A DNA stretch of 64,000 bases from an uncultured bacterium (lineage in GTDB: Bacteria > AUK180). The DNA lies in the NCBI GenBank assembly GCA_937863565.1, contig CALMGJ010000010.1, forward strand, positions 75,413 to 139,412, written 5' to 3'. This document shows, in pieces, positions 3,539 through 61,720 of the stretch. The number at the start of each line of letters is the position of its first letter. Position 1 is the first letter of the stretch. Below the pieces are notes generated by a model. That model ran no database searches, was not told the origin of the DNA, and saw nothing but the letters and a program-made list of their open reading frames with translations. A program made the translations under genes and the position numbers.

Positions 3539-3908
3539 TTGCATGGGATGCGGAAAGGAGAACCCGTGCGGATTGAAGCTTGAATTCTCCTACGGCAACG
3601 GCTTTGCCGTAACGGAAAGCGTCCTCGGGCGCATGTATGAAGGCTATGAGAATATCGTTCACGGCGGGATCATTTCGCTCGTCCTGGACGAAGTATCGGC
3701 CAAGGCCGTGATAGAGTATGAGGGCGTTGCCGTCACAGCGCGCATCCAGGTGTCCTTCATCAAACCTCTGATGTGCGGCGTTCCGTTCACCGCCCAGGCG
3801 AGGATAGAGAGTGTAGAAGGAAGGAAGATCTTCGTAAAAGGCGAACTCAAAGAGGCGGGTGTTCTGATAGCCCGCAGCGAGTCCGTTTTCATAAAGGTGG
3901 GTGAATGA
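3504..3908 (+). CDS. Hotdog-fold thioesterase (PaaI-like)
   Basis: 134-aa protein; HGG…SLVLDE core typical of PaaI/YbgC hotdog thioesterases; N-terminal CxxC…C. Confidence 0.65.
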   Translation: MKERDIKKDNPNCMGCGKENPCGLKLEFSYGNGFAVTESVLGRMYEGYENIVHGGIISLVLDEVSAKAVIEYEGVAVTARIQVSFIKPLMCGVPFTAQARIESVEGRKIFVKGELKEAGVLIARSESVFIKVGE

Positions 3909-36815: not shown

Positions 36816-38122
36816 AAGAAAGACTTAACGGGATAGCAAGAGAGATCCTGTCCGCTTCCGATGCGGATTTTACGAGAGTTTCCATCTCGCTATCCGAAAC
36901 GGATCTTACAAGATTCGCCAATTCCGAGATACATCAGAACGTTTCCCAAGAGAATATCGGCATAGGGATAGAACTGGCCTACGGCTCGAAGCACGGCTTC
37001 ACTACCCTGGACTATCCCGATCCCGAACTTATAAAAAGCGAAATCAAGGCGCTGAAAGCGCTTGTGATCGCGGGGAAGGACGATCCGGAATTCTGCGCTG
37101 CGAGAGGGGAGAATCACGAATACTCGGAGAAGTATGACGAAGAAACAGCCTCTCTCGGTCCGAAAAGCATGGCGGATATTGCAGGCGGCATCATCGCAAG
37201 GACGAACAAGGCGGGCCAGGAATCATTCGGTTCATTAAGCTTACGGAGGGAACACGAACTTCTCGCTAATTCCTTCGGCTCGAAAGCGTTCTCCGAAGCG
37301 ACGGTAGTGGAGCTCGTTACGATCCCCGTGAAGAACGAACGGACTACTTATAATGAATTCTTCTCCCACAGGATATCCGATTATTCTGAGGAGGCTCTTC
37401 TTGCCGCACCGCTTTCGCGGATGGACCTTTATAAAAATTTCAGCGATCTCAAAAGAGGGAAATATACCGTCCTTCTCGAAGAGATCGCAGTATCGGATAT
37501 CATACGCTTTTTTAACTATATGGTATCCTCCGGCCGCATGCTTCATGAGAAACAGAGCGCGTTCTACGGCAATATGGGCAAGGAGATCACCGGAAAAAAT
37601 CTCACTCTTCACGATGATCATACGGACCCTCGGACCGTGGGAAAACCTTATGATTCCGAACTCAATACAAAAGAGAGGATCGTGCTCATCGAGAACGGCG
37701 TGGCCAAAAACGTTGCGTTGAACGAAAAATATTCCAAGCTTCTCGGGATGAAGAACAACGGGCATTCTGTCATGGGAGGCCAGAACACGATGTGCGGCAA
37801 TCTCCGTCTGGAAACGGGCGATGCGCCAAAGGACGAGATAATATCCGGCATTGAGAACGGGCTTCTGATAACGAGATTCCATTATACCAATGTGCTGGAT
37901 ATGAGAAAAACCATATTTACCGGAATGACAAGGGACGGCATGTATATTATTAAAGACGGAAAGCTCACGGGAACGGGCAATAATCTCAGGTTCACGATCA
38001 ATATACTGGATGCGTTCAAGAACATCAAGGCCCTTGGAAAAGAACTTGTCTGCATCGGCGGCGTTTCCGTTCCCTGCCTTAAAATAGAGGATTTCAATTT
38101 CACTGGGGAGACGAGATTTTGA
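36809..38122 (+). CDS. TldE/PmbA-family protein (pair 1)
   Basis: PmbA/TldE architecture without HExxxH; overlaps tldD by 7 nt. Confidence 0.82.
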   Translation: MVKERLNGIAREILSASDADFTRVSISLSETDLTRFANSEIHQNVSQENIGIGIELAYGSKHGFTTLDYPDPELIKSEIKALKALVIAGKDDPEFCAARGENHEYSEKYDEETASLGPKSMADIAGGIIARTNKAGQESFGSLSLRREHELLANSFGSKAFSEATVVELVTIPVKNERTTYNEFFSHRISDYSEEALLAAPLSRMDLYKNFSDLKRGKYTVLLEEIAVSDIIRFFNYMVSSGRMLHEKQSAFYGNMGKEITGKNLTLHDDHTDPRTVGKPYDSELNTKERIVLIENGVAKNVALNEKYSKLLGMKNNGHSVMGGQNTMCGNLRLETGDAPKDEIISGIENGLLITRFHYTNVLDMRKTIFTGMTRDGMYIIKDGKLTGTGNNLRFTINILDAFKNIKALGKELVCIGGVSVPCLKIEDFNFTGETRF

Positions 38123-39012
38123 GCGAGTTCATAAGGTCCCTATTCGGCGATTCGCTTTCCGAAGCCGTAAAAAGCCCGGTCTTTATAAAGATCATCCAGA
38201 GTTTTTTCATCATGCTCGTCTTCGGCGGCGTTTCCTTCATGTTCACATCGCTGATCGGGAAGGGAGTGAAGAACAGCCAAGCGCGCTACAGGGCCGTGAA
38301 ATATGTCAATGTATTCTTCTCCGTCCTCATCATTGTCTGTATCTTTCTTATTTGGATATCCATGCTCCGCTCCGTGGCCATAGTCCTCTCCGTGATATCC
38401 GTAGGGCTTGCCCTTGCGCTTCAATCGGTCATCCTTTCCTATGCCGGATGGCTTTATATAATAACTCGGAAATCCGTGAAAGTCGGTGACCGCATCGAGA
38501 TAAACGGCCTCATCGGGGATGTGATCGACATCGATCCCTACAGCATCACGCTTCTTGAAATAGGTAACTGGGTGAAAGGAGAGATGTCCACGGGCCGGAT
38601 CGTGAAACTGCCCAACAGCGCCGTGTTCCAGCATCACCTGTACAATTACACGCATGGCTGGGATTTCATCTGGGACGAGATATCGGTAACAATAACTTTC
38701 GAAAGCGATTTTAAAAAAGCCGAGGCGATATTCCTCGATATCATAAAGGATTATGCCGCGAAATATCAGGAAGAGATAAAAAAGACCATAGATGAACTCG
38801 GGAAAAAATACCTTATCTATTTTAAATTCTATACCCCGAAGACCTTTGTTTCAATAGAATCCTCGGGCATTCAGGTAACCCTGCGCTACCTGGTCAACGC
38901 GCGTGAAAAACGCATGAAGAGGGACGAGATATCGCGTGAATTCCTTCTTCGGATTGGTCCGGAGCCGGATGTGAATCTGGCATATGAAACGCGCAGGATC
39001 GTCAAGGATTGA
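38119..39012 (+). CDS. Small-conductance mechanosensitive channel (MscS family)
   Basis: 3 TM helices followed by beta-domain VKVGDRIEINGLIGDVIDIDPYSITL; ATGA-type overlap. Confidence 0.85.
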   Translation: MSEFIRSLFGDSLSEAVKSPVFIKIIQSFFIMLVFGGVSFMFTSLIGKGVKNSQARYRAVKYVNVFFSVLIIVCIFLIWISMLRSVAIVLSVISVGLALALQSVILSYAGWLYIITRKSVKVGDRIEINGLIGDVIDIDPYSITLLEIGNWVKGEMSTGRIVKLPNSAVFQHHLYNYTHGWDFIWDEISVTITFESDFKKAEAIFLDIIKDYAAKYQEEIKKTIDELGKKYLIYFKFYTPKTFVSIESSGIQVTLRYLVNAREKRMKRDEISREFLLRIGPEPDVNLAYETRRIVKD

Positions 39013-40235
39013 ACCGGATCCGGCAGTATTTCGCGAATTTCATTTTTGAAACGAAAAAGAAGACCGCACTGTACAGGCTTCTCATGCTGCACTCCTTTTT
39101 CGAAGGTCTCACTCAGGGTATATTCCTTCTGCAGGAAACGATAGCGAAGAAATCGCTTTCCGCAACGGATTTTCATGTGACCGTTCTTACGATACTGATA
39201 CATATCGGTCTCGTTTTCTCCATCTTTTTCGGCGTCTATTTCAGGGGAAGGAAGAAAGCCCCGGGCTATGTTGTGGGCCTGCTGGCCGGCAGGCTTATTT
39301 TTCTGTTCTCATTCCTGATAGGGAATATCTATATTTTCATCGGGTTTGTATTCCTCTATTATTTCTCAACATCGGTCATTTCTCCCGGCATAAACAGCGT
39401 ATTCAAGAACGAGTTCAAGATCACGAACCGGGGGAAGCTGTTCTCGATGCTGCGCGCCGCAATGTCGCTCTCCGCCATGCTCTCTTCTTATATTGCGGGT
39501 AAATATCTGGACCTCACGCAGAATTACAGGATCGTGCTGATCGCGGCCGGCATTTTCGGAGTATTGTCCTTTTTGATGCTCATTGCAGTCGACAATACGG
39601 CCGATTATTCCAAGATGCGAGCAGCCGGACCGGCAAAACCGATGCCACTGGACAGGGATTTCCTTCGGTTCGAGGCCTGCTTCATGACATACGGGTTCGC
39701 ATTCATGATAATGCTCCCGGCCGCGCCGATCTACCTTATAGATAAAATGGGTTTCAGTTTCACACAGATGGGATTCGTAAAAGGGGCAATGGCTCAGATA
39801 TTCTTCATCATGTTCATCCCGTTCGCCGGCGCCGTTTTCGACAGGATGTCGCCGTGGAAGGTCTTCCGCAACAGCCAGATCCTTCTTTCCCTTTTTCCTC
39901 TCGGATTTCTCCTCGCCGATACTTTTTTCCCGCATAGAACAGTCATTTATGCCGCATTCCTTTTCTACGGAATGGGGATCTCGTCAATGACCGTGTTGTG
40001 GACACTTGCTTCCATCTATTTCGCAAAAGGCGAGGATTCGAGCTATTATCAGTCCGTACATGTGGCTTTTACGGGCGTGAGAGGCCTGCTTGCTCCCGCT
40101 TTGAGCTATTTTCTGTTCAGGACCTTCTCGTTCAGAGTGTGCTTTATAATGGCCGCCGTGCTTTTCCTTGCCGCATTCGCGATGGCACAATACCGCATTC
40201 TTGCAGGAAAAAGAACTTTTATCGCTTCTCAATAG
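39009..40235 (+). CDS. MFS transporter
   Basis: 408 aa, about 12 TM helices, typical MFS loop motifs. Confidence 0.75.
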   Translation: MNRIRQYFANFIFETKKKTALYRLLMLHSFFEGLTQGIFLLQETIAKKSLSATDFHVTVLTILIHIGLVFSIFFGVYFRGRKKAPGYVVGLLAGRLIFLFSFLIGNIYIFIGFVFLYYFSTSVISPGINSVFKNEFKITNRGKLFSMLRAAMSLSAMLSSYIAGKYLDLTQNYRIVLIAAGIFGVLSFLMLIAVDNTADYSKMRAAGPAKPMPLDRDFLRFEACFMTYGFAFMIMLPAAPIYLIDKMGFSFTQMGFVKGAMAQIFFIMFIPFAGAVFDRMSPWKVFRNSQILLSLFPLGFLLADTFFPHRTVIYAAFLFYGMGISSMTVLWTLASIYFAKGEDSSYYQSVHVAFTGVRGLLAPALSYFLFRTFSFRVCFIMAAVLFLAAFAMAQYRILAGKRTFIASQ

Positions 40236-40236
40236 G

Positions 40237-40264
40237 TTGAAAATCTTTGAATTTCTGATATACT
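40237..40264 (+). promoter_or_regulatory. Internal sigma70-like promoter upstream of ferritin-like gene
   Basis: TTGAAA-16-TATACT, then CAGGAGGT RBS and ATG 40287. Confidence 0.45.
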
Positions 40265-40286
40265 AAATGTAAACAGGAGGTAGAAT

Positions 40287-40787
40287 ATGGGTACCAAAGG
40301 CAAAGCTATCGTAGGGATCAGGATCAATGATCTTATCAAACTTCTGAACAGCGCACTGGCGGACGAGTGGCAGGCGTACTACCAGTACTGGATCGGAGCG
40401 AAGGTCATTAAAGGGCCTATGAAAGAAGCTGCTATCGCGGAACTTCTCCAGCATGCGGCGGATGAGCTCAGGCATGCCGAAATGGTCAGCGGCCGCATTA
40501 TCCAGCTGGGCGGCACTCCGGTGCTCACGCCCGTAGAATGGGCAAAAGTGTCAAATTGCGGTTATGATGCTCCGAAGGATCCGTTCATTAAAAAAGTGCT
40601 CCAGCAGAACATCAAAGGCGAGCAGTGCGCGATAGAGGTCTACAATCAGATAGTGAAGCTCACAAAGGATAAAGATCTTGTCACCTTTAATATGGCGGTG
40701 CAGATCATGACGGACGAAGTCGAGCACGAAGAGGACCTCCAGGCGCTTCTCGAAGATTTCGAAACGATGAAAAGGTCGTTCAAGTGA
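40287..40787 (+). CDS. Ferritin-like (four-helix-bundle, bacterioferritin/Dps-like) protein
   Basis: 166 aa; paired E…ExxH diiron-type ligands (EWQAYYQY…ELRHAE; EVEHEED). Confidence 0.7.
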   Translation: MGTKGKAIVGIRINDLIKLLNSALADEWQAYYQYWIGAKVIKGPMKEAAIAELLQHAADELRHAEMVSGRIIQLGGTPVLTPVEWAKVSNCGYDAPKDPFIKKVLQQNIKGEQCAIEVYNQIVKLTKDKDLVTFNMAVQIMTDEVEHEEDLQALLEDFETMKRSFK

Positions 40788-40799
40788 AAGGGAGATGAC

Positions 40800-42128
40800 A
40801 TGAACAAAGCATTTCTTGAGGGTCTTCAGAGCCTGACGAAAAAGTACGGAGAGAAACTTAACTTTTCGTACTCCGAATGGGAGACGGATTTCCTGAGGTT
40901 TTACAGGAGCAAGACGAATTACAATATCAGCAACCGTATAAATACTCTCGGCTGTACAGTCCACAGAGGAAAGCGTGCGATGAGCTTCTCTATCGACGAG
41001 CCCGATATTGCCGGGGTAGAAAAGAAATTGCAGGCCGTCCTTGCGGTTATAGACGGTATCCCTGAAGATCCCGACTTCGTAGACATCGAGAACGACACAA
41101 GGGCCGCTCTGGCCGCAGAAACGGTGAATAATATCACTGCGGTGGGTCTTGAAAAAAAGATCGGTCTACTCAATGAAATAAAAAGGGACGCCGCGACAAA
41201 AGGCTTCAGGATCTTCGGGACTTTCATTACGAATTATGTCGAACATGCTGTAATAAATTCCAGCGGGGTTTTCAAGACCTCGGTCACTTCTCCATTCTTG
41301 TTGGATGTCAAGGCGGTCAAGGACGACAATGACGTCACAGTGATCGAGAACACGGGGGGCAGCGATTACGGCGCTTTCTCTGAAAAGGATTTCCGCGCCT
41401 CTCTTTCTGCGAAGATGGATAATGCCGGAAAAGAGCTGATCGATATGGAGCCGGGAAGATACGAGGTAGTGCTCTCTCCTTCAGCCACGGCCGAGTTCAT
41501 GGGCTATCTTCTGGCTCTTGCGAACGGCGGAACGCTGGACAGCAATAATTCGTTCTTCGAAGGAAAAGTTGGGCAGAAATTATTCCCGGAAACGCTCACG
41601 GTCACCGATGACCCCTTAAATCCGAGGCTTGTGAGGACGCCATATAACGACGAGGGAAGACTTCTCGGGAAACTTCCCGTAATAGAAAGAGGAGTGTTCA
41701 GGAATTTCTTCATCGATAATTATTACGGCAACAAACTGAAAATGGATAAAAACGGCAATTCGGGCTCGAACATCGTCATTGGAAAGGGGAAGATACCTCT
41801 TTCCGATATGATCAAGGGGATCAAGAAGGGTCTTTTTATCTCTAACCTGCATTACATGAACTTCATAAATCCCAAAGAGACCTCGGTGACCGGTCTTACA
41901 AGGGACGGCACTTTTTTGATCGAGAACGGGGAGATCAAAAACGTTGTGAACAATCTCCGTTTCACGGTGAAGATAGAGGAAGTATTCCGCAATGCCGTTG
42001 AATTCGAGGATAGGGAACATGTGCTTGCGCGCTCGGGCAATTACGGTGAATTCGGGATCAATACGGCTCTTGCCCCGCATATCAAGGTGAAGGATTTCAA
42101 TATCACCTCGTCGACAAAGACGGTATAG
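40800..42128 (+). CDS. TldE/PmbA-family protein (pair 2)
   Basis: PmbA/TldE-like, no HExxxH; C-terminal GxxxG…beta region similar to pair 1 TldE. Confidence 0.82.
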   Translation: MNKAFLEGLQSLTKKYGEKLNFSYSEWETDFLRFYRSKTNYNISNRINTLGCTVHRGKRAMSFSIDEPDIAGVEKKLQAVLAVIDGIPEDPDFVDIENDTRAALAAETVNNITAVGLEKKIGLLNEIKRDAATKGFRIFGTFITNYVEHAVINSSGVFKTSVTSPFLLDVKAVKDDNDVTVIENTGGSDYGAFSEKDFRASLSAKMDNAGKELIDMEPGRYEVVLSPSATAEFMGYLLALANGGTLDSNNSFFEGKVGQKLFPETLTVTDDPLNPRLVRTPYNDEGRLLGKLPVIERGVFRNFFIDNYYGNKLKMDKNGNSGSNIVIGKGKIPLSDMIKGIKKGLFISNLHYMNFINPKETSVTGLTRDGTFLIENGEIKNVVNNLRFTVKIEEVFRNAVEFEDREHVLARSGNYGEFGINTALAPHIKVKDFNITSSTKTV

Positions 42129-42137
42129 GAGACTCTG

Positions 42138-43577
42138 ATGAAGAACACGGCTTTAAAGATATTGAACAAGATAGAAAGGTCGGGGATCACGTATGCGGAC
42201 GTAAGACTTACGTCCACCGATAATGAAGGGTTCCATTTTGAAAGAGGCGCTCTCAAAGGCATGGGCGGCCAGAAGGACTCGGTAAGAGTGGGCATACGGG
42301 TGCTGGCTGAAGGGACCTGGGGTTTTGCCGCCGGTTCTGATATTTCGGATAACGCTGTCGATGCGATGATCAAAAAGGCAACGGACAATGCGAAAAAGGG
42401 AAGCAGGTTTCAGGCTGAAAGAGATGAATTCAAGCCGATCAAGGGGATTGAAAAAGAGTACCGGTTCAAACCCGAGATCGATCCGTTCACGATGCCTCTT
42501 GAAGAAAAACTTGCCTACTTGGAAAAGCTCGCGAAGATGATCGCGGGTGACCCCAATATTCCGTTCTCCATTGTGGATCTTATGTGCTACAGGCAGCATA
42601 AAGTGTTCGTCAATACCGAAGGCATGATCGCGGATACTGTCGTTTACGACATCAAACCTTCCATGATGGTGATCGCCGTCGGCCCGGGCGGAGTGATGTC
42701 CAGAACATTCCCCGGACATATGGAAGCGAGAAGAGGGGGCTTCGAAGTGCTGAAACAATACGACTTCGAGGGAAATGCCGAAAGGATAATGAAAGAAGCG
42801 GCGGAACTTCTGACGGCAAAAGGAGTTGAGGATGACGAAGGCGATATTATAATCGGCGCCGGCCATCTCGCTCTCCAGCTTCACGAATCCGTGGGGCATG
42901 CAACTGAAGCGGACAGAATATTCGGCATGGAGATATCTTACGCGGGCAAGACTTTTGTTAAGCCCTCCATGATAGGCAATTTCAAATACGGTTCGGATAT
43001 ACTCACGATATACACGGATGCCAGTGACGAGCGGGGCATCGGATTCCATCCTGTCGACGACGAAGGCGTGCCGGCAAAGAGAGTGGATATCATTAAAAAC
43101 GGAGTCCTGAAAGACCTGCAGACATCACGGCAGATCGCGGATAAACTCGGGCTGGAGCCCTCGTCCAATATGAAGGCCTCGTTCGCCTCGGATTTCCCGC
43201 TGGTCCGCATGACCAATCTCTGCATTGAACCCGTAAAGGGAAGCCTCAAAGAGATGATCGCCGGAACAGAGAACGGATATCTTGTTGATTTCACGAAGAC
43301 CTGGTCGATTGACGACAACAGGAATAATTTCCAGTTCACGACCGAAATAGGCTGGAAGATCAAAAACGGGAAGATCGAGAGGGTCGTGAGGGAACCCACT
43401 TATTTCGGCATAACCAAGGAATTCTGGAATTCCTGCGATGCGATATGCGGACCCGAGGAATGGAACTATTACGGAACTTTCTTCTGCGGCAAAGGCGAAC
43501 CGGGTCAGGCGATGCACCTGTCGCACGGCGTGGCGCCTGCACGTTTCAGGAAAGTGAAGCTTCTTAAAAGCTATTAA
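42138..43577 (+). CDS. tldD: TldD-family metallopeptidase (pair 2)
   Basis: HExxxH motif QLHESVGHATEADRIFG; C-terminal CGKGEPGQ; 479 aa. Confidence 0.88.
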   Translation: MKNTALKILNKIERSGITYADVRLTSTDNEGFHFERGALKGMGGQKDSVRVGIRVLAEGTWGFAAGSDISDNAVDAMIKKATDNAKKGSRFQAERDEFKPIKGIEKEYRFKPEIDPFTMPLEEKLAYLEKLAKMIAGDPNIPFSIVDLMCYRQHKVFVNTEGMIADTVVYDIKPSMMVIAVGPGGVMSRTFPGHMEARRGGFEVLKQYDFEGNAERIMKEAAELLTAKGVEDDEGDIIIGAGHLALQLHESVGHATEADRIFGMEISYAGKTFVKPSMIGNFKYGSDILTIYTDASDERGIGFHPVDDEGVPAKRVDIIKNGVLKDLQTSRQIADKLGLEPSSNMKASFASDFPLVRMTNLCIEPVKGSLKEMIAGTENGYLVDFTKTWSIDDNRNNFQFTTEIGWKIKNGKIERVVREPTYFGITKEFWNSCDAICGPEEWNYYGTFFCGKGEPGQAMHLSHGVAPARFRKVKLLKSY

Positions 43578-47565: not shown

Positions 47566-49579
47566 TTCAAAAAACTTCGAGAAATTCATTAGCGAAGCGA
47601 TCATTGAACTTGATAAAAAAGCATACTCAAAGGCTGAAAAGCTTTTCCAGAAAGCGAAGGAAACTGACCCGGAAAGATATGAGTCGTACCTATATCTCGG
47701 CAATCTCTATTTCGAGCAGAACAATGAATCGAGCGCCAAGGAGAATTTCCTCAAGGCTATTTCGATAAATACGAAACTCAAGGAAGATATATCCAATTCC
47801 GCAGTGGCTTACTGGGAGAAGAAAGTATATGCGAGAGCTATTGCCGAGCTCAAGAAACTTGTTCTCATCGATCCATTGAATTCGGAGTATATTTCGGACC
47901 TTGTGAAGATCTATATGGAGATCGAGAATTTCGACGAAGCGAGAAAACTTCTCGAAAACCTCTATGAAAAGAACAGGGACAATCTCGACATCATCCAGCA
48001 ATTAACATACCTCTTCGAGGATATGGGGGATTTCAACCGGGCTTTAGAATTCTCTGAAAAGGTCATCATGGAACGTTCGGAAGACCCGTTCGCCGTCAAT
48101 AACCACGGCTATATCCTGCAGAAACTCGGGAGGGAAGACGAATCGCTGGATTATTTCGATAATGCCATTCAGCTCGATTCGATGAATTCGATGTTCTGGA
48201 TGAACCTTGGGGTAAGCCTCAAGAACCTCGGCAGATACGATGAGGCGCTTGAGAAACTCGACAAAGCTTATGAACTTTACCCGGAAGACATCAATGTGCT
48301 CGACGAACTCTCGTCAACTTATATAAAGAAGGGCGACCTCACAAAGGCTACGGAATTTCTGAATAAGATACTCGAGATCAACAAAAACGACGCCCACGTA
48401 CATAAGAACTATGCCGAGATCTACTATCTGAACGGTGAAAAAGAGAAAGCGATCGAAGCGTACAGGAATGCGATAGCCCTGAACCCGAAGGGGAAGGACA
48501 ATTATTTCAGGCTGGGGCAGATATATTATGAAATGGGCGATTTCGAGAACGCCAGGAATTTCCTCAAGACCGGGGCCAATCTTTTCCCGAAGGCGAAGGA
48601 GATAATAAAGCTCATCGGCATCATCGAGTTCGAGGGAGGGAATTATTCCGAGGCGATCAAATACTATAAGCGGTACATCGCCAATAACCTTTACGATCCG
48701 GAGATCCTTGCCAATCTCGGTTTTATCTACAAAGAACTCGGTTTCATCCATTTCGCCATCTGGTCCTACGAAAAGGCCAATTCAATCAAGACGGACGAGA
48801 AGGTGCTCGAAGCGCTGGCAGAACTCAGTTTCAGGGTCCGCAAGATCGAGGACAGCGTGAACTATCTTAAAACCCTTCTCAGCATCACGCCTACCACGCT
48901 CAAGTACTATACGATGCTCTCGAAGATACTGATCGAGAAAAAGGACTATTCGCATGCCTTTGCCGTTCTGGATGTTGCCGCAAAAATGAAACCCGATCAT
49001 TACGAGATACTCATAGAACAGGGCAATATCCTGATGTTCGAAGGCAAGTATAAGGAAGCGCTCGACATTTTCAAATCCGCGATCTCCAAGAACCCGAAGG
49101 CCAATGAAGGCTATATAGCGATAGCCAAACTTTTCCTTGCGATAAATCAGCCCGAAAAAGCGGAAATGATGCTCAATCAGGCGATCAAATTCGCCGGCGG
49201 TTCAGCCGAGGTTTATTTCTTCTTCGGCGATACGGTAGGGAAATTCCCCAACAGGTTCGAAGAAGCCGTAAGCTATTACGAAAAAGCCAAGGAATTGAAC
49301 CCGCATATCGCCGCCACGCATTTTAAACTGGCACAGCAATATATTGAGATGGGTCTTCTGGACGATGCCGCCAATGAGGTCATCATGCACCTCAAAGAAT
49401 TCAGCGACGATGCTGAAGCCCTTAAGATTTCCGGGTATATAAATATTCAGAAAGGGAATTTCCAGGAAGCGCTCGATATCTACGAGAGGGTGATGAATCT
49501 CAGCGAGAAGAAAGAGCGCAATATCGAGAACATAATTCAGATCCTGAAGGAAGAGCTCGATTCAAGATTGAAAAAATGA
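47546..49579 (+). CDS. Large TPR-repeat protein
   Basis: 677 aa of tandem TPR units (AxxxY/NLG motifs). Confidence 0.8.
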   Translation: MLGRKDSSKNFEKFISEAIIELDKKAYSKAEKLFQKAKETDPERYESYLYLGNLYFEQNNESSAKENFLKAISINTKLKEDISNSAVAYWEKKVYARAIAELKKLVLIDPLNSEYISDLVKIYMEIENFDEARKLLENLYEKNRDNLDIIQQLTYLFEDMGDFNRALEFSEKVIMERSEDPFAVNNHGYILQKLGREDESLDYFDNAIQLDSMNSMFWMNLGVSLKNLGRYDEALEKLDKAYELYPEDINVLDELSSTYIKKGDLTKATEFLNKILEINKNDAHVHKNYAEIYYLNGEKEKAIEAYRNAIALNPKGKDNYFRLGQIYYEMGDFENARNFLKTGANLFPKAKEIIKLIGIIEFEGGNYSEAIKYYKRYIANNLYDPEILANLGFIYKELGFIHFAIWSYEKANSIKTDEKVLEALAELSFRVRKIEDSVNYLKTLLSITPTTLKYYTMLSKILIEKKDYSHAFAVLDVAAKMKPDHYEILIEQGNILMFEGKYKEALDIFKSAISKNPKANEGYIAIAKLFLAINQPEKAEMMLNQAIKFAGGSAEVYFFFGDTVGKFPNRFEEAVSYYEKAKELNPHIAATHFKLAQQYIEMGLLDDAANEVIMHLKEFSDDAEALKISGYINIQKGNFQEALDIYERVMNLSEKKERNIENIIQILKEELDSRLKK

Positions 49580-50346
49580 AGATCAGCGTTCTGGGCTCAG
49601 GAAGCAAAGGCAATTCGATCTTCTGTCAGCTGAATGAGACAAAGATCCTTATAGATATAGGTTTTTCTTATAAACAGACGAAAGAGCGGTTGGAGAAAAT
49701 AGGGGAAGATCCGGAGAACATACAGTTCATACTGATATCGCACGAACACAGCGATCACATCGGGGGCCTCGAAGCATTCAGCGCGAAACACGGTAAAAGA
49801 TTCTTCATCTCCCGGCATTCACTGGCCAAGATCAAAAGCAAGATTAAGAACGTCGAACTCGCGGAGGCCTTTGAAGCGGGCCAGAGCATAAGGGGAAATG
49901 ATTTCGAGATCTGCACGTTCCCCCTCAAGCATGACAGCGCTCAGAACACAGGTTTTTTTCTGAAAGACAAAACCGGCACAGCGCTTCTCATCTATGATAC
50001 CGGAGAGATCCCGGAAGATATTCTCAAAAAGTACGGGGATGCAGATATCCTTGTCATCGAAGTTAACCATGATGTCGAGATGCTCTACGGTTCGAGATAT
50101 CCTTGGATGCTTAAAAAGAGGATCTTGAGCGAAAAAGGACATCTTTCGAATGAGCAGGGCTTCCATGTGGCCGAACGCCTTTCCGCGGGGCGTAAAAAGC
50201 TCAAATATATCTTCCCCGTTCACATAAGCGAGGAGAACAATCATATCGAACTTGTAAGAAAGGCTTTCCACGGAAGCAAGATCGCGGAAGGGCCCGAGCT
50301 CGTAGAGAGTTATCCGGATAAACCGACCAAATTGGTGCAGTTGTGA
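49576..50346 (+). CDS. MBL-fold metallo-hydrolase
   Basis: HEHSDHIGGL metal-binding motif; 256 aa. Confidence 0.8.
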   Translation: MKISVLGSGSKGNSIFCQLNETKILIDIGFSYKQTKERLEKIGEDPENIQFILISHEHSDHIGGLEAFSAKHGKRFFISRHSLAKIKSKIKNVELAEAFEAGQSIRGNDFEICTFPLKHDSAQNTGFFLKDKTGTALLIYDTGEIPEDILKKYGDADILVIEVNHDVEMLYGSRYPWMLKKRILSEKGHLSNEQGFHVAERLSAGRKKLKYIFPVHISEENNHIELVRKAFHGSKIAEGPELVESYPDKPTKLVQL

Positions 50347-56455: not shown

Positions 56456-56484
56456 TTGACATTTGCACATATGTGCGTTATAAT
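56456..56484 (+). promoter_or_regulatory. Consensus sigma70 promoter (TTGACA-17-TATAAT) with embedded perfect 12-bp palindrome GCACATATGTGC (candidate operator)
   Basis: TTGACA 56456–56461; palindrome 56465–56476 within the spacer; TATAAT 56479–56484. Confidence 0.75.
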
Positions 56485-56512
56485 ATAGTGAGGTTATGAA
56501 CATAGGTGCAAT

Positions 56513-56965
56513 ATGCCAAGACCAAGGAACTGCAGGAACATCAAAGGACCGCCTCTTATTTCCGCCTTTAAACCGGTAGGAACACCCGCGCGGTGTCTGA
56601 AGAGCGTAACCATAAGTTTAGATGAATTCGAAGCTATCAGACTTGCCGATCATGAAGGACTGGAACATGAGGAAGCTTCAAAACTGCTCGGTATCTCACG
56701 TTCGGTATTCACGCGTCTGGTTGAGAAAGCGAGGCAAAAGATAGCCGATGCCCTGATCAATGGTTGCGCTATCATAATAGAGGGCGGCGATTATCATTTT
56801 CAGTGTGATTATTACAGGTGTTTGAAATGTTTTGCGGTCATAGAAAGATCATTTTCGGAAAACCCGCCGGTCAATTGCCCGAACTGCGGTTCAGAGGATA
56901 TCAAACATCTCAATGAACATTACGGCGGAAGAGGGCACTGCCGAAGACATGGCGGGAATATTTAA
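56513..56965 (+). CDS. DUF134 (UPF0251) predicted DNA-binding protein
   Basis: N-terminus MPRPRNCRNIKGPPLISAFKPVG…, central helix-turn-helix-like region, C-terminal Cys cluster CPNCGS…H; 150 aa. Confidence 0.75.
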   Translation: MPRPRNCRNIKGPPLISAFKPVGTPARCLKSVTISLDEFEAIRLADHEGLEHEEASKLLGISRSVFTRLVEKARQKIADALINGCAIIIEGGDYHFQCDYYRCLKCFAVIERSFSENPPVNCPNCGSEDIKHLNEHYGGRGHCRRHGGNI

Positions 56966-56977
56966 TAGGAGGTTATC

Positions 56978-57325
56978 ATGCCTGGTATGAACGGAACTGG
57001 GCCCCTCGGAGAGGGATCGATGACAGGAAGAGCAATGGGCCGCTGCAATCCTTCGGCGAACAATGGAACGCCTTTGGGTAATTTTTTTGGCAGACTCGGT
57101 CTCGGAAGACGCTTCGGCTTCGGCCGCGGTTTCGGCTTCGGCCGCGGTATTGGCTTTGGCCGCGGTTGCGGCTATGGACGCGGTTTCGGCTATGCAGCGC
57201 GGGGATTTTTCCCATATGCTCCGGATGCAAAAAGCGAACTCGAATCCCTGAAAGCGGAAAAGAAACTACTTGAGGAAGAGATCAAACGATTGGAAGCGGC
57301 TGAAAGCGGTCCGGAAAACAAATAA
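56978..57325 (+). CDS. Gly/Arg/Phe-repeat coiled-coil protein (DUF5320-like)
   Basis: N-terminus MPGMNGTGPLG…MTGRAMGRC; (F/Y)G(F/Y)GRG repeats; C-terminal coiled coil LESLKAEKKLLEEEIKRLEAAE; 115 aa. Confidence 0.7.
   Translation: MPGMNGTGPLGEGSMTGRAMGRCNPSANNGTPLGNFFGRLGLGRRFGFGRGFGFGRGIGFGRGCGYGRGFGYAARGFFPYAPDAKSELESLKAEKKLLEEEIKRLEAAESGPENK
57101..57190 (+). repeat. About 18-bp tandem DNA repeat (ttcggcttcggccgcggt-like, about 5 imperfect copies) encoding the GFGRG units
   Basis: Direct repeats visible in sequence 57101–57190. Confidence 0.7.
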
Positions 57326-58171
57326 TTGAAGATCGCTTTTGCAAGCGGGAAGGGCGGCACCGGCAAGACCGCCCTTTCCGTCAATTTCGCATTATTCTGC
57401 GCGGAAGAGGAACACACGCTTCTTTTGGACCTTGATGTTGAGGAACCGGATGTCCTCAATTTCATTCCACGAGCGGAAATGCTCAATAAAAGAGAGATCA
57501 GCGTCAGGATCCCCGATATTGACAAAGAAAAATGCGACCTTTGCGGCAATTGCGTTAAAGCGTGCAATTTCAATGCGCTGCTTCTTTCAAGAGAAGAGGT
57601 GAAGATCTTCCCCCAGCTTTGCAAGAACTGTTTGGCCTGCGCCGATGTCTGTCCGCGGGATGCCGTTACATTCAAAGAGAAAAGGATAGGAGAGGTCAGC
57701 TCTTTCGGAAGCGACCGGCTCGACCTGATCGAGGGCAGGCTCGATATCGGCGACATACACACCAAAACAATGATCTCGGAAGCAAAAAGATCGGTTTTTA
57801 AAGAATACGATACCGTTATATACGATTGCCCGCCGGGCACCACCTGCCCTATGGTGGAAGCTGTGGTTGACGCGGATTATGCCGCGCTTGTGGCGGAACC
57901 CACTTTGTTCGGCCTTTGCGATCTGGAACTGGCCGTTTCGGCATTGCAGAAAATGAAAAAACCATTCGGCATCATTATCAATAAATCGGAAGAGAATAAC
58001 GATATTATTAAAAAATACTGCATGGATAACGGCATTGTGATACTTGCGGACATCCCTTTTGACGAAGAGGTCTTCAAAAGATACGCGGAGGGGAGGGACC
58101 TGGTAAGTCTGAAATGGTACAAAGGCAAGATGGCCCAGCTCCGACTCAATATAATGAAGGCTGCCCGATGA
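57326..58171 (+). CDS. MinD/Mrp-family P-loop ATPase with inserted 2×[4Fe-4S] ferredoxin domain (copy 1)
   Basis: Deviant Walker A ASGKGGTGKT; CDLCGNCVKAC and CKNCLACADVCP motifs; TTG start right after the upstream stop. Confidence 0.85.
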   Translation: MKIAFASGKGGTGKTALSVNFALFCAEEEHTLLLDLDVEEPDVLNFIPRAEMLNKREISVRIPDIDKEKCDLCGNCVKACNFNALLLSREEVKIFPQLCKNCLACADVCPRDAVTFKEKRIGEVSSFGSDRLDLIEGRLDIGDIHTKTMISEAKRSVFKEYDTVIYDCPPGTTCPMVEAVVDADYAALVAEPTLFGLCDLELAVSALQKMKKPFGIIINKSEENNDIIKKYCMDNGIVILADIPFDEEVFKRYAEGRDLVSLKWYKGKMAQLRLNIMKAAR

Positions 58172-59064
58172 AACAGATAGCTTTCGCAAGCGGAAAAGGC
58201 GGAGCGGGAAAAACCACCCTTTCCGCGGCTTTCTTCGATCATGTGGCAAGCATGTCCGTATTTGCGGATTGCGATGTTGATGCTTCGGACGCCTTCATCC
58301 TTCTGGAGAAGAGGACCCTTTCATCGGAACCTTTCGAATCCGGGTATAAATACGAAATAGAACAGGATAAATGCACTTCCTGCGGCATATGTCGGGAAAA
58401 ATGCGTTTTCGGAGCGATAAAGATAGAGAACGGGAAATATCTTATAGACCTTTTTAAATGCGAGGGCTGCGGGAGATGCGCTTTGGCTTGTCCGGCCGCC
58501 GCCATAAAGAAAGAAAAGAACTACTGCGGGGATATCTTCAATGCCGAAACACACGGCGGTCATCCGATGGCATATGCCCGGTTTTTCCCCGCGGAAGACA
58601 ATTCGGGTAAACTGGCAAGTAAAGTGAGGATGCGCGCCGTAGCGCAAATGATAAAGGAGAAACGGTCCCTCATCGTGATAGATTCGCCGCCGGGCACCGG
58701 CTGTCCCCTTACTGCGAGCATCACCGGCATTGACTTTCTTGTGGTTGTGATAGAATGTACGATGTCCGGCTTTTCTGATGCGCAGCGTCTCATAGAGCTT
58801 GCAGAGAAGATGAAGATCCCCGTGATGGCAGTATTGAACAAAACAGGCCCGGATGATCTTACTCTTGAAAAAGCCAAAAGGATGCTTGCAGAAAAAGGCA
58901 TTCCCCTTGCGGGCAAGATACCTTTCACAAAAGAGGTGAGCAGTCTTATAAATAGAAAAAAACTCATAACGGATACGGCAGACCCCGCATTGAAGACCGT
59001 TATCGAAAGGATATTTGCCGAGATCTGCCGTTTATCGGGAATAGAAAAAAGGAGTGAAATATGA
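58168..59064 (+). CDS. MinD/Mrp-family P-loop ATPase with inserted 2×[4Fe-4S] ferredoxin domain (copy 2)
   Basis: ASGKGGAGKT; CTSCGICREKC and CEGCGRCALACP. Preferred start is ATG 58168 in ATGA overlap (ORF tracker 58114). Confidence 0.85.
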   Translation: MKQIAFASGKGGAGKTTLSAAFFDHVASMSVFADCDVDASDAFILLEKRTLSSEPFESGYKYEIEQDKCTSCGICREKCVFGAIKIENGKYLIDLFKCEGCGRCALACPAAAIKKEKNYCGDIFNAETHGGHPMAYARFFPAEDNSGKLASKVRMRAVAQMIKEKRSLIVIDSPPGTGCPLTASITGIDFLVVVIECTMSGFSDAQRLIELAEKMKIPVMAVLNKTGPDDLTLEKAKRMLAEKGIPLAGKIPFTKEVSSLINRKKLITDTADPALKTVIERIFAEICRLSGIEKRSEI

Positions 59065-59387
59065 AAATAGCAGTGGCAACGAACGACAAGACCAGCGTAA
59101 ACCGCGAATTTGCAAGAGCCCTTTTTTTTGCGCTCTACGATGACAGCGGTAAAACATTTGATTTTTTGGATAACTCGGAATCCCAGAACGCCGCTCACGG
59201 CGCAGGCATCATGGCCGCCAATACATTGAAAAAAAATTCAGTGGATGCGGTCCTTGCTTTTCAGCTTGGCCCCAAAGCGCTTGACGGATTGAAAACCAAT
59301 GGTATAAAGATCTTCAGGGTCAATGCAGGCGTTGCTTTGACTGAAGCGGTGAAGATGTACGAAGAGGGCAAACTCGGGGAATACTGA
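59061..59387 (+). CDS. NifX/NifB-C-like (dinitrogenase FeMo-cofactor-binding fold) protein, copy 1
   Basis: 108 aa; MKIAVATND…G…F…D pattern typical of the Nitro_FeMo-Co family; ATGA overlap. Confidence 0.7.
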   Translation: MKIAVATNDKTSVNREFARALFFALYDDSGKTFDFLDNSESQNAAHGAGIMAANTLKKNSVDAVLAFQLGPKALDGLKTNGIKIFRVNAGVALTEAVKMYEEGKLGEY

Positions 59388-59392
59388 AAGAT

Positions 59393-60187
59393 ATGCAGAT
59401 CACCGTACTTGCCGAGAACAAAGCGGGTAAAGGGGCATATGCCGCCGAACACGGCCTTTCCCTTCATATCGTTCACGGAGAATACACTGTTCTTTTCGAT
59501 ACGGGACAGAGCGGGCTTTTTTCCGAGAACGCCCTTAAAGCCGGCACGGATATCACGTCTGTTCATGCCTCTGTTCTGAGCCACGGCCATTACGACCATG
59601 CCGGGGGGCTTCCAAGATTTATGGAGCTGAACTGCCGCGCACGGATCTTTATGAAGAAGGAAGCCTTGATCCCGAAATACTCCGCGGACGGACGTTTTAT
59701 CGGTACGGACCTGCAAGCTGACAAGGAGAGGTTCTCGTTCATCGACAAACAGTTTGAATTAACTGAAGGGCTTTGGATCATTCCCTCTATTGAAATATTC
59801 GATCAAGATGACACGAACTGCTCGGGTTTTTTCATAGATGACGGACAGGATCTCAGGGCGGATATGTTCGAAGACGAGCTTTTTCTCGCAGCCATGACCG
59901 AAGAAGGCCTGACCGTGATCACGGGATGTTCGCACAGGGGAATAACAAATATCGTTCATACCGCAAAAAGGATATTCAAAAGCCCTGTTGCAGCGGCGAT
60001 CGGCGGTTTTCATCTGAAGGCAAGGTCAGCAGATGAAGTGAGAAGAAAGGCGCTGGCACTGAAAAAAGCGGGATTGAAACGCATTGAAACAGGGCATTGC
60101 ACCGGAAGGGAGAGCCTACGGGAATTGAAAGAGGTCTTCGGGGCGGGTCTCGGAGAGCTTTTCTGCGGAAAGAAAATAAAAATCTGA
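59393..60187 (+). CDS. MBL-fold metallo-hydrolase
   Basis: HGHYDHAGGL motif; 264 aa. Confidence 0.8.
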   Translation: MQITVLAENKAGKGAYAAEHGLSLHIVHGEYTVLFDTGQSGLFSENALKAGTDITSVHASVLSHGHYDHAGGLPRFMELNCRARIFMKKEALIPKYSADGRFIGTDLQADKERFSFIDKQFELTEGLWIIPSIEIFDQDDTNCSGFFIDDGQDLRADMFEDELFLAAMTEEGLTVITGCSHRGITNIVHTAKRIFKSPVAAAIGGFHLKARSADEVRRKALALKKAGLKRIETGHCTGRESLRELKEVFGAGLGELFCGKKIKI

Positions 60188-60198
60188 AGGAGAAGATA

Positions 60199-60546
60199 AT
60201 GGGAACGGAAAAAGTCAGGATCGCCATACCCGTAGTGGGAGGCGCAATAAGCGAGCATTTCGGTCATTCGGAAAAATTCGAGGTGTACACGGTCAAGGAC
60301 GGAAAGATCGAAGGCAGTGAGGACCTGGTCCCGCCGCCGCATGAACCGGGCGTGATTCCGAAATGGCTGAACGGGATCGGGGCGAATGTGATCATCACGG
60401 GCGGCATAGGAAGAAAAGCCGTGGAACTTTTCAATTCATACGGTATAACGGTTGTTTCGGGAGTATCTGCCATGACGGCCCGCGAAGCGGCAGAGAAATA
60501 TGTAGAAGGTAACCTTGATTCCACGGGAGAGACCTGTTCGCATTAG
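60199..60546 (+). CDS. NifX/NifB-C-like (FeMo-cofactor-binding fold) protein, copy 2
   Basis: MGTEKVRIAIPVVGG…HFGHSEKFEVY…; start ATG 60199 with GAAGGAG RBS (ORF-tracker start 60097 would overlap the MBL gene). Confidence 0.7.
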   Translation: MGTEKVRIAIPVVGGAISEHFGHSEKFEVYTVKDGKIEGSEDLVPPPHEPGVIPKWLNGIGANVIITGGIGRKAVELFNSYGITVVSGVSAMTAREAAEKYVEGNLDSTGETCSH

Positions 60547-60610
60547 GCTCCGCACCCGTTTTATAAAAACCGCTTTTTATGATATAATCTCAAAAATGGA
60601 GGTCGTCTCT

Positions 60611-61720
60611 ATGAAATGCGGCAGATCCCTCATCTTTGCTCTCGTCTCCCTGCTTTTCATTCTTTCTTCCTGCAAAAGGACCCTTGTCATTGACGATAAT
60701 GCCATAGAGATAAATAAGCTCACCGGCAGCGCCAAAAGTTTCTATGAAGGCAATGATCAGACAGTTTTCCGAACATTCATCCTGGACGGCAACTCGCATT
60801 TCATAATTGCCGAAGAGGATAAACTTGCCTATCTCGGGCGCTATCTCGACAGAATTCGGTATTATGAGGAGAACGGGACCTATAAGCATGTCATACTGCC
60901 CTATGAGAAGCAGTTCGCCGGCCCGGATGATGTCTCCCTCGTTTATGAGAGGAATCTCAGCACACAGAAAGTGTCTTCCGTTGATAATGACCTTCAGACG
61001 AAATTGAACATGAGCATAGACGAGATGATCGTCAAGCTCGGGAAATTGAAACCCCTTACCGAAGATAGAAAGGCGGAGATAAAAGCGTCCGTTTCCGCGC
61101 GTTTCAAAGGGGTTTTCAGAAAGACCAGATCTGTGAAAACGGATGTTTTCCTCTATCAGGTGCGCACCGAACTTCTCGATAAGATAAAAAAAGGCCACGA
61201 GGATCAAAAAGAGCTCATCTCGGAAATAGAGATGAAAAAGAAAAGTTTCATCACGAAGATCCTCATTGCACGGGTCAGTTCCGGCTACACGAAGGATTCG
61301 GGGATAGTCACCGAACTTGCCGCGGAATGGAAGGCGGTCCTGGGAGAGCACGGCCTGGACGCGGGGGATGCTTTCAATATGGAATTGAAGAGCCACTGCG
61401 AGAAGATAAGTCAGCCGCATTATATAATGCTCGGTTACGGTGTGGACATAACCGATTCGATAGAAAACGCTTGCCTTGAAGATCCGGAACATTTCGCAAG
61501 CTCGCTTTTTCCCATAGTCAAAATACCGGGGATACGCTCTCTCGTGGGCGGCGGCACTAAATCACTCGAAGACAAGAAAGATATGTCCGGGGAGGAAAAT
61601 GAGGAAGGTCTGATCGGCTCTCCCGCCGAGGAGGAAATAATGATGAATACCGATGCAATTAATAGGATATTGGAGAATAAGAAGATATCAACCGAAGATC
61701 TCATCAGATCTCTGGAATAG
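60611..61720 (+). CDS. Lipoprotein of unknown function
   Basis: Lipobox signal MKCGRSLIFALVSLLFILSSC; GGAGG RBS 8 nt upstream of ATG 60611; Lys/Glu-rich; 369 aa. Confidence 0.65.
   Translation: MKCGRSLIFALVSLLFILSSCKRTLVIDDNAIEINKLTGSAKSFYEGNDQTVFRTFILDGNSHFIIAEEDKLAYLGRYLDRIRYYEENGTYKHVILPYEKQFAGPDDVSLVYERNLSTQKVSSVDNDLQTKLNMSIDEMIVKLGKLKPLTEDRKAEIKASVSARFKGVFRKTRSVKTDVFLYQVRTELLDKIKKGHEDQKELISEIEMKKKSFITKILIARVSSGYTKDSGIVTELAAEWKAVLGEHGLDAGDAFNMELKSHCEKISQPHYIMLGYGVDITDSIENACLEDPEHFASSLFPIVKIPGIRSLVGGGTKSLEDKKDMSGEENEEGLIGSPAEEEIMMNTDAINRILENKKISTEDLIRSLE

Follow-up and report, generated by a model that had tools for sequence, protein, structure and literature searches.

A probable DUF134-regulated form of the orange protein operon in an uncultured bacterium, with a candidate palindromic operator

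The subject of this report is a cluster of seven closely spaced genes at positions 56,456 to 60,546 of a 64,000-nucleotide stretch of DNA from an uncultured bacterium (GTDB lineage Bacteria; AUK180; contig CALMGJ010000010.1 of GenBank assembly GCA_937863565.1). We call the whole stretch the window, and positions are those of the window unless a related locus (L number) is named. The described system that the genes most resemble is the orange protein (ORP) complex of Desulfovibrio vulgaris Hildenborough and D. alaskensis G20, whose components are Orp3, Orp4, Orp5, Orp7, Orp8, MrpORP (Orp9) and the regulator OrpR. In D. vulgaris, Orp3 and Orp4 are paralogous ATPases, 41% similar, that each carry two [4Fe-4S] ferredoxin motifs, and they co-purify with Orp8, with Fe-S absorbance, MrpORP being the cluster donor of these proteins (PMC6345978). 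The orange protein itself, Orp8, has a single Di-Nase domain and holds an anionic [S2MoS2CuS2MoS2] cluster non-covalently, while MrpORP (Orp9) consists of a Mrp/NBP35 P-loop domain fused to a Di-Nase domain (PMC6345978, PMC8359166) and transfers Fe-S clusters in vitro (PMC6345978). The orp genes form two divergent sigma-54 operons that are activated by OrpR, an Fe-S-containing redox sensor (PMC6345978, PMC8359166). A putative role in cell division or septum positioning is ascribed to the complex; MrpORP is polar, and a C-terminal amphipathic helix like that of MinD is reported for Orp3 and Orp4 (PMC6345978, PMC3897727, PMC8359166).

A second described system bears on part of the cluster. IssA (SipA, PF2025), which has uncharacterised relatives named IssX, stores iron-sulfur as thioferrate in Pyrococcus furiosus. 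Its 70-residue tail, with 15 Gly, 14 aromatic and 7 cationic residues and a pI of 10.7, has been proposed to wrap an anionic (FeS2-)n chain (PMC5524996). Vaccaro et al. modelled the NifX-fold domain of IssA on MTH1175 (PMC5524996).

The operon in the window is made up of the following features.

56456-56484, plus strand: sigma-70 promoter, TTGACA-17 nt-TATAAT, 12 of 12 consensus positions
56513-56965, plus strand: DUF134, PF02001 at 100.6 bits (cut-off 27), with a weak zinc-ribbon match at the C terminus; 150 amino acids (aa)
56978-57325, plus strand: DUF5320, PF17253 at 69 bits (cut-off 27), profile positions 1-94 of 99; 115 aa
57326-58171, plus strand: ATPase1, TTG start, CbiA/ParA P-loop with two Fer4 motifs; 281 aa
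58168-59064, plus strand: ATPase2, CbiA/ParA P-loop with two Fer4 motifs, start overlapping the ATPase1 stop (ATGA); 298 aa
59061-59387, plus strand: NifX1, PF02579 at 63.5 bits; 108 aa
59393-60187, plus strand: metallo-beta-lactamase-fold (MBL) protein, Lactamase_B with an HGHYDH motif; 264 aa
60199-60546, plus strand: NifX2, PF02579 at 62.8 bits; 115 aa

An earlier sequence-only reading of this DNA had named these seven plus-strand genes, their families and their order, and the Pfam profile search agrees for each open reading frame (ORF); the consensus promoter that it placed before the operon is likewise there. It had described the genes as joined by TTG, ATGA and 1-5-nt junctions. The coupling is indeed tight and the TTG and ATGA junctions are present, but two junctions are longer: in order, they measure 12, 0 (TAA directly followed by TTG), -4 (ATGA), -4 (ATGA), 5 and 11 nt. 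Public gene calls give identical protein lengths for six of the seven genes, and the six publicly called proteins are singletons at 90% identity, and thus the host organism has been sampled only once.

From sequence comparison, we think it very probable that this operon is an ORP-type operon in a form regulated by DUF134. Like the ORP system, it has two adjacent paralogous MinD-type ATPases of ~31-32 kDa with two [4Fe-4S] ferredoxin motifs each, a single-domain Di-Nase protein that is closest to the orange protein (NifX1, corresponding to Orp8) and a second Di-Nase module of the MrpORP type (NifX2). The gene set is restricted to anaerobes in both cases, and related loci carry the remaining hallmarks of the Desulfovibrio system. 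True MrpORP genes (501-557 bits) adjoin the ATPase pair in L013, L016, L054 and L059, and OrpR-type regulators, with the three-domain architecture, GAFTDA and a PAS C-x8-C-x3-C triad, adjoin it in L055, L062, L070 and L076, where the ATPases are 39-40% identical to ATPase1 over nearly its full length. The window operon differs from the Desulfovibrio system in its regulation, with a sigma-70 promoter and DUF134 in place of sigma-54, integration host factor and OrpR, and in its layout, with one operon instead of two divergent ones. Whereas Desulfovibrio has a full MrpORP, the window has only the Di-Nase half, minus two conserved cysteines. DUF5320 and the MBL hydrolase are additions relative to Desulfovibrio, and no equivalent of the small Cys-rich Orp5 was recognised in the window operon. 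No sigma-54-type -24/-12 element was found near the operon, and matches to it in the window are below chance expectation.

The sequence-only reading had called the cluster conserved and functionally unassigned. A biochemical function is still unassigned, but the cluster has already been studied as the ORP cluster of D. vulgaris (PMC6345978, PMC8359166), and since the operon is a member of that known system the claim of an unstudied module fails. The form with DUF134, a sigma-70 promoter, a trans-acting DUF5320, a recurrent MBL gene and only the Di-Nase half of MrpORP is very common and, as far as we searched, undescribed in the literature.

OrpR-like regulators with GAFTGA were also seen in Spirochaetota and Ignavibacteria (L018 2497-3858, L075 2497-3852 and L079 1838-3232), with PAS, sigma-54 AAA+ and HTH_8 domains and the PAS triad C-x8-C-x3-C, whereas the OrpR paper describes a regulator seemingly restricted to Deltaproteobacteria.

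Among solved structures, NifX1 matches 2WFB, the ORP of D. gigas, best (1.1e-12, residues 13-104) and MTH1175 next (2.3e-11, full length). NifX1 has no cysteine at all, so that, as in ORP, no cysteine ligands are on offer. NifX2 scores 114 bits against the MrpORP model NF041136 (cut-off 450), over model positions 250-365, and is 53% identical to the C-terminal Di-Nase domain of the MrpORP gene that occupies the syntenic position in L083. That gene (8329-9531) is a bona fide MrpORP, at 474 bits against the cut-off of 450, and we take NifX2 to be the free-standing counterpart of the MrpORP C-terminal Di-Nase domain. Where Desulfovibrio-type proteins have CxHFGHCE and CDH, NifX2 has SEHFGHSE and CSH; the CxHFGHCE cysteines are the proposed ligands of the [3Fe-4S] cluster in Desulfovibrio MrpORP. 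In L083, the spirochaete MrpORP reads SSHFGHAE in its Di-Nase domain, which is likewise without both of these cysteines, with the histidines and the C-terminal C-x-H kept.

ATPase1 and ATPase2 are 27% identical and 48% similar to each other and fall in a superfamily that we take to be the SIMIBI class. Both have a deviant Walker A motif, GKGGxGKT (GKGGTGKT in ATPase1), and a switch II motif D-x-PPGT-x-CP (DCPPGTTCP in ATPase1), and a ferredoxin insert for two [4Fe-4S] clusters lies between the Walker A region and switch II (residues 62-115 in ATPase1). Two CxxCxxCxxxCP motifs per ATPase had been claimed from the sequence alone; each ATPase does have two ferredoxin motifs, CxxCxxCxxxC and then CxxCxxCxxxCP, but the proline is in the second only. 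The AlphaFold 2 (AF2) model of ATPase1, with a predicted local distance difference test (pLDDT) score of 93, shows the MinD/ParA/Mrp fold, and the structures that match it best include those of MinD; structure searches found no solved structure with a ferredoxin insert in such an ATPase. The pair has in common with the Mrp/NBP35/ApbC and MinD/ParA ATPases the fold, the deviant Walker A GKGGxGK[ST] with its signature lysine and a probable ATP-sandwich dimer. It differs from them in the ~55-residue ferredoxin insert after the Walker A, in having neither the Mrp CxxC nor MinC/MinE partners, and in scoring far below the cut-offs of all the specific family models.

It is probable, from sequence and by analogy, that ATPase1 and ATPase2 act together as a heterodimer, because their gene order is fixed, natural fusions of the two types exist and Orp3 and Orp4 form an analogous pair. 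Among the best 150 representatives of the family, ~35 are two-module ATPase proteins (485-710 aa), and in P0245, the only fusion checked, the N-terminal half is of the ATPase1 type (43% identity) and the C-terminal half of the ATPase2 type (38% identity). Beyond the eight ferredoxin cysteines, each ATPase has a cysteine in switch II: C174 of ATPase1 (57845-57847) is present in 92% of ATPase1-type relatives, and C179 of ATPase2 (58702-58704) is present in 100% of ATPase2-type relatives. NifH places a ligand of its inter-subunit cluster at the equivalent position of switch II, and it is conceivable that the switch-II cysteines form a third, bridging metal site between the subunits.

From the kinship with NBP35/Mrp/ApbC, the sequence-only reading had inferred an Fe-S scaffold or carrier that delivers a complex metallocluster to a client enzyme, in the way of NifEN/NifX/NafY or Nbp35/Cfd1. 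NifX-fold proteins do carry cofactor precursors in nitrogenase maturation, Mrp or NifU-Mrp genes are present in some of the clusters, and in L088 DUF134 and NifX lie beside MOSC and modABC-like genes and a molybdoenzyme; the in vitro cluster transfer by MrpORP (PMC6345978) also fits a carrier. Nevertheless, the scaffold inference is not supported, because the family scores are low (25 bits against 348 for ApbC, 40 and 32 bits against 450 for MrpORP), because the bridging CxxC motif of Mrp, looked for outside the ferredoxin insert, is absent from both ATPases, because the clusters are of the ferredoxin, electron-transfer type, and because the Desulfovibrio homologues are acceptors of clusters, not donors (PMC6345978). 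NifX1 and NifX2 are far below the nitrogenase models (22.7 bits against 112 for nifX, 15-17 bits against 344 for nifB) and share with the NifX/NafY/NifB-C cofactor carriers only the superfamily domain PF02579. Nor was a client seen: as had been said from the sequence alone, the window has no nitrogenase, hydrogenase or carbon monoxide dehydrogenase among its 20 largest other ORFs and no nif genes among the ORFs tested, and no conserved gene for a client enzyme was seen in ~90 neighbourhoods. On balance, we regard delivery to a client enzyme as improbable.

The MinD likeness of the ATPases also raises the possibility of a redox-gated positioning or division system, in which the ATPases would bind the membrane or pole by C-terminal amphipathic helices, their Fe-S clusters would sense very low redox potential and help to place the septum, and the NifX-fold proteins would serve as regulators or adaptors. 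This would accord with the putative role of the Desulfovibrio complex in division and septum positioning, the polar MrpORP and the helix of Orp3/Orp4 (PMC6345978, PMC3897727, PMC8359166), as well as with the MinD/ParA fold of the ATPase1 model and its MinD matches. The helix evidence is mixed: ATPase2 ends in its most amphipathic 14-residue stretch (hydrophobic moment 0.68), and at the C terminus of ATPase1 the helix is amphipathic to a moderate degree only. The MinD family models, however, score far below their cut-offs (minD_arch 54 and 47 bits against 202, minD_bact 36 and 39 bits against 213). Moreover, neither minC, minE nor any other division gene is found in the operon or in the nine related neighbourhoods with Pfam labels; the constant partners are metal-cluster-binding NifX-fold proteins and, occasionally, Mrp, NifU-Mrp, Zip and modA-type genes. 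The Desulfovibrio phenotype could itself be indirect, through a disturbed supply of Fe-S or metal. We think that a positioning system is unlikely, though a shade less so than a carrier.

We next consider how far the gene set is conserved. ATPase1 has thousands of relatives, the nearest of them in metagenome-assembled genomes of Spirochaetota and Bacteroidota, at ~49% identity, and the ATPase family has 522 representatives (50% identity clustering, E <= 1e-30) among 1.84 billion cluster representatives, distributed across many phyla of bacteria and archaea. Scanning one genome per species yielded 80 loci, which belong to many anaerobic bacterial phyla and also to archaea (Bathyarchaeia, Thermoplasmata, Methanophagales and Thorarchaeota among them). 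In the related loci, ORFs were called and classified by profiles built from the window proteins, and the counts that follow are lower bounds, because many contigs end early. A tandem ATPase pair is present in at least 67 of 81 related loci, with a stop/start overlap in 42 of those 67, and the order is ATPase1-type followed by ATPase2-type in 63 of 72 pairs. Within 3 kb of the tandem pair, a NifX-fold gene is found in 62 of the 67 loci, DUF5320 in 30, DUF134 in 25 and MBL in 5.

The nearest relatives have the same order, including MBL, which bears out the conserved gene order expected by the sequence-only reading. Writing A for an ATPase, L082 reads DUF134, DUF5320, A, A, 4HBT, NifX, MBL, NifX; L083 reads DUF134, DUF5320, A, A, NifX, MBL, 4HBT, MrpORP; and L084, L085 and L086 read DUF134, DUF5320, A, A, NifX, with or without a second NifX. 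That unrelated genes came to lie by chance behind a strong promoter might still be argued from the MBL gene, which is in only a minority of the related clusters. However, the gene junctions overlap or nearly abut, 67 of 81 loci, from many phyla and with archaea among them, keep the synteny, and fusions join A1 to A2, NifX to DUF5320 and Mrp to NifX. Synteny and fusion proteins together thus refute chance adjacency, to which we leave almost no probability.

The MBL protein matches the solved structures 2P4Z (1.1e-48) and 3H3E (3.6e-40), and proteins of this 2P4Z/TM1679 type are presumably COG1237. It is 37% identical to the product of the syntenic gene in L083, and an MBL gene is in or near 7 of the 81 scanned loci, as well as L082 and L083. 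We read it as a recurrent accessory gene.

Other genes recur in or beside the clusters (L082, L083, L084, L087, L088, L089 and L017/L054/L058): a 4HBT thioesterase, a 1-Cys peroxiredoxin (AhpC-TSA), TrmO_N, DsrE, a Zip metal transporter, a CGGC-domain protein and a DUF89/ARMT1-like phosphatase. In Planctomycetota, the phosphatase gene opens the operons and comes right after the operator described below.

From its sequence and its AF2 model (pLDDT 84.8), DUF134 has a sigma-region-4-like helix-turn-helix and a C-terminal CxxC...CPxC zinc ribbon: three helices of the model superpose on sigma-70 region 4 with 0.6-0.9 Å over ~47 residues, and a zinc-ribbon-like beta domain comes after them. The cysteines C103, C106, C122 and C125 are invariant across the family, for which a word-indexed search returned 512 relatives. 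A fold search with DUF134 found no full-length analogue; the matches it gave were local ones, with sigma region 4 and with zinc-binding domains, and comparison of DUF134 and DUF5320 with solved structures gave only low-complexity or zinc-ribbon noise. Literature searches found no publications on the function of either family.

Two candidate operators lie before the DUF134 gene.

56464-56477, no strand assigned: candidate operator 1, palindrome TGCACATATGTGCg within the promoter spacer
56497-56510, no strand assigned: candidate operator 2, TGAACATAgGTGCA, ending 2 nt 5′ of the DUF134 ATG

These two sites are the sole matches to TGMRCATATGYKCA with at most one mismatch in the 64-kb window. Upstream of DUF134 genes in related loci the consensus is ATGARCATATGYTCAT, with the form ATGAGAATATTCTCAT in Bacteroidota, and across many bacterial phyla, and in some archaea, this palindrome overlaps promoters that belong to DUF134 genes and ORP-type operons (the window, L001, L008, L025, L026, L029, L035, L036, L053, L083-L089 and others). 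It is often paired, with the two sites 23 or ~33 bp apart. L083, L084 and L085 have the core of operator 2, GAACATAGGTGCA, unchanged at the corresponding position, even though the DUF134 proteins compared in the closest relatives (L085 and L086) are only ~56-59% identical to that of the window. Exact matches to the core number 11 in the 4.2 kb upstream of DUF134 genes as against 3 in 904 kb elsewhere, a ~680-fold enrichment.

An extended search with a 20-nt pattern across 1.06 Mb gave 33 sites, and every one of them sits at the 5′ end of a DUF134 gene or of an ORP-type operon. The first gene behind the site varies (DUF5320, NifX, ATPase or DUF89 phosphatase), and single sites precede an OrpR-type gene and, in L088, a modA-type molybdate/tungstate uptake operon. 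The sites are typically between or overlapping the -35 and -10 elements, and in the usual layout cTTGACA is followed after 1-2 nt by TTATGAGCATATGCTCATAAT, the right arm of which provides the -10 element; this is the geometry of a repressor. Because the conserved palindrome overlaps the promoters of these operons across phyla, DUF134 is a probable repressor, and we consider it likely, to judge from these patterns, that it represses its own operon via the palindromic operators. We did not find ATGARCATATGYTCAT described as a DUF134 operator in the literature searched.

As a functional analogy, the ModE-type repressors are also small DNA-binding proteins with a palindromic operator that overlaps their own promoter, and the DUF134 operator in L088 overlaps, in ModE-like fashion, the promoter of the modA-type molybdate/tungstate uptake operon. 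The fold of DUF134, a sigma-region-4-like helix-turn-helix with a zinc ribbon, is unrelated to that of ModE, however. In L088 (1799-6738 and downstream), three operator-bearing promoters stand before a modA-type ABC transporter, a DUF134-MOSC pair and a DUF134-NifX pair, and a gene for a molybdoenzyme of the xanthine dehydrogenase type adjoins these genes. Because the L088 operators sit in this molybdate/tungstate context, there is a hint that DUF134 may respond to Mo/W status.

Some minor observations concern the operator and the DUF134 protein. Two palindrome matches in L005 (646-761) lie within a 102-bp tandem repeat (560-900) with weak operator-like matches, and we judged them to be due to chance; that locus has no ORF of at least 80 aa in 529-3474, and its G+C content drops to 26-30% over most of this region. 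Many DUF134 proteins end in GGFGHGRCC, and the window protein has GGRGHCRRHGG. A second Cys-rich module (C-x-CPxCG ... CPxCG) comes after DUF134 in homologues from L002 and L068, and it is also found behind the DUF5320 N-terminal motif in small proteins of L034 (6763-6993) and L038 (168-392). These Cys-rich modules of DUF134 and DUF5320 N-terminal proteins may be related to the small Cys-rich Orp5.

DUF5320 has three parts: an N-terminal MPGxxGTGPxGxGxMTGRxxGxC motif, a cationic Gly/Arg/aromatic repeat (residues 25-84, with 19 Gly, 8 Arg and 13 aromatic residues in 60 and a pI of 11.5) and a C-terminal coiled coil. Natural fusions of NifX to DUF5320 that are above both Pfam cut-offs occur at L023 5954-6511, L034 5944-6498, L065 752-1396 and L071 6349-6951; fusions were also seen in L059, L061, L066 and L074. 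The part of DUF5320 that is fused consists of the repeat region and the coiled coil, joined to a NifX domain of the orange protein type, and the fusions indicate that DUF5320 works with NifX-fold proteins. In L042 and L078, NifX domains have Gly/Arg-rich tails only, an architecture like that of IssA.

IssA and the window system are alike in these respects: NifX1 belongs to the NifX-fold (IPR003731) group and matches the MTH1175 template, and a cationic, Gly/aromatic-rich disordered segment is part of the system, in cis on NifX in related loci. They differ in that the IssA tail is in cis, whereas the tail in the window is on a separate DUF5320 protein with an N-terminal motif and a coiled coil, and NifX1 (108 aa) is tailless. 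Furthermore, thioferrate and nanoparticles stand on the IssA side of the comparison only, and the IssA literature searched mentions no ATPase pair. Neither the NifX-DUF5320 fusions nor the likeness of DUF5320 to the IssA tail was found in the literature searched.

Taken as a whole, the reading that we favour, and hold to be rather probable, is that of a DUF134-regulated ORP operon whose products handle an inorganic metal sulfide of anionic character, driven by ATP and redox chemistry. DUF134 would repress its own operon while bound to two operators, one in the -35/-10 spacer and one abutting the start codon. ATPase1 and ATPase2 would form an ATP-dependent heterodimer of the MinD type, with two ferredoxin-type [4Fe-4S] clusters and a switch-II cysteine per subunit, and NifX1, as a cysteine-free orange protein homologue, would be expected to dock on the pair like Desulfovibrio Orp8. 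NifX1 and NifX2 would hold the anionic metal sulfide non-covalently, as a thioferrate-like Fe-S polymer or a thiomolybdate-type Mo/W-S cluster, and DUF5320 would supply in trans the cationic Gly/Arg/aromatic tail, with its coiled coil, that IssA and related proteins carry in cis. ATP hydrolysis and electron flow through the ferredoxin inserts would then load or unload the cargo, with MBL as an accessory. The step in which the heterodimer loads or unloads a metal sulfide held by the NifX-fold proteins and the DUF5320 tail is drawn from analogy, and we put it forward only tentatively.

Several points weigh against this proposal. The ORP orthology is inferred by way of proxy loci linked to OrpR and MrpORP, not from the DVU2103-DVU2109 sequences themselves, and the window operon is without the MrpORP P-loop domain, a sigma-54 promoter and OrpR. 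NifX2 is without the two cysteines proposed as cluster ligands in MrpORP. DUF5320 resembles the IssA tail in composition only, which is no demonstration of homology. The ferredoxin-type clusters could be redox sensors instead of electron donors, and MBL is given no explained role. The cargo metal is ambiguous: the analogy with IssA points to iron, while the orange protein points to Mo/W, as does L088, with its modABC-like genes, MOSC-domain gene and molybdoenzyme and with the modA-type and DUF134-NifX genes both behind the operator. Finally, the biochemical function is not known even for the Desulfovibrio ORP complex, and its sole phenotype points to cell division (PMC6345978, PMC3897727).

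A broader version of the metal-sulfide proposal is more speculative, and we would call it doubtful at present. It holds that DUF134 is a bacterial and archaeal repressor that senses a metal or metal sulfide (Fe-S, or a Mo/W thiometallate) and, through ATGARCATATGYTCAT, controls an ATP- and electron-driven store or mobiliser composed of NifX-fold proteins, a DUF5320 tail and an Orp3/Orp4-type heterodimer. In that case, a single ancient system would show itself both as the orange protein complex of sulfate reducers and as the IssA thioferrate particles of Thermococcales. The hypothesis of an anionic metal sulfide joins two separate literatures, those of IssA and of the orange protein, and, if true, it would matter for the storage and mobilisation of Fe-S or Mo/W-S by strict anaerobes that live in sulfidic habitats. 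The ORP cluster is among the most widespread anaerobe-specific gene sets without a biochemical function, and the comparison offers handles on it: a predicted DUF134 repressor with a defined operator, for mapping the regulon and the inducing signal, and fusions that pair DUF5320 with NifX-fold proteins and the two ATPases with each other.

The flanks of the operon are unrelated to it. Upstream is DUF1015 on the opposite strand, and downstream are a lipoprotein-like ORF, serC and serA. No intrinsic terminator was found 3′ of NifX2, including between NifX2 and the next ORF, and Rfam and tRNA scans of the window gave zero matches. The ORF 3′ of NifX2 (60515-61720; probable start 60608) has no Pfam or NCBIfam match; it encodes a signal peptide and a lipobox-like LSSC and has a promoter-like site of its own at 60560-60588. 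Elsewhere in the window (2369-3538, 3901-8057, 35367-43577 and 49576-50346) are DUF362 with a ferredoxin domain, a MoxR-DUF58-transglutaminase cluster, three PmbA/TldD paralogues and a second, unrelated MBL-fold gene.

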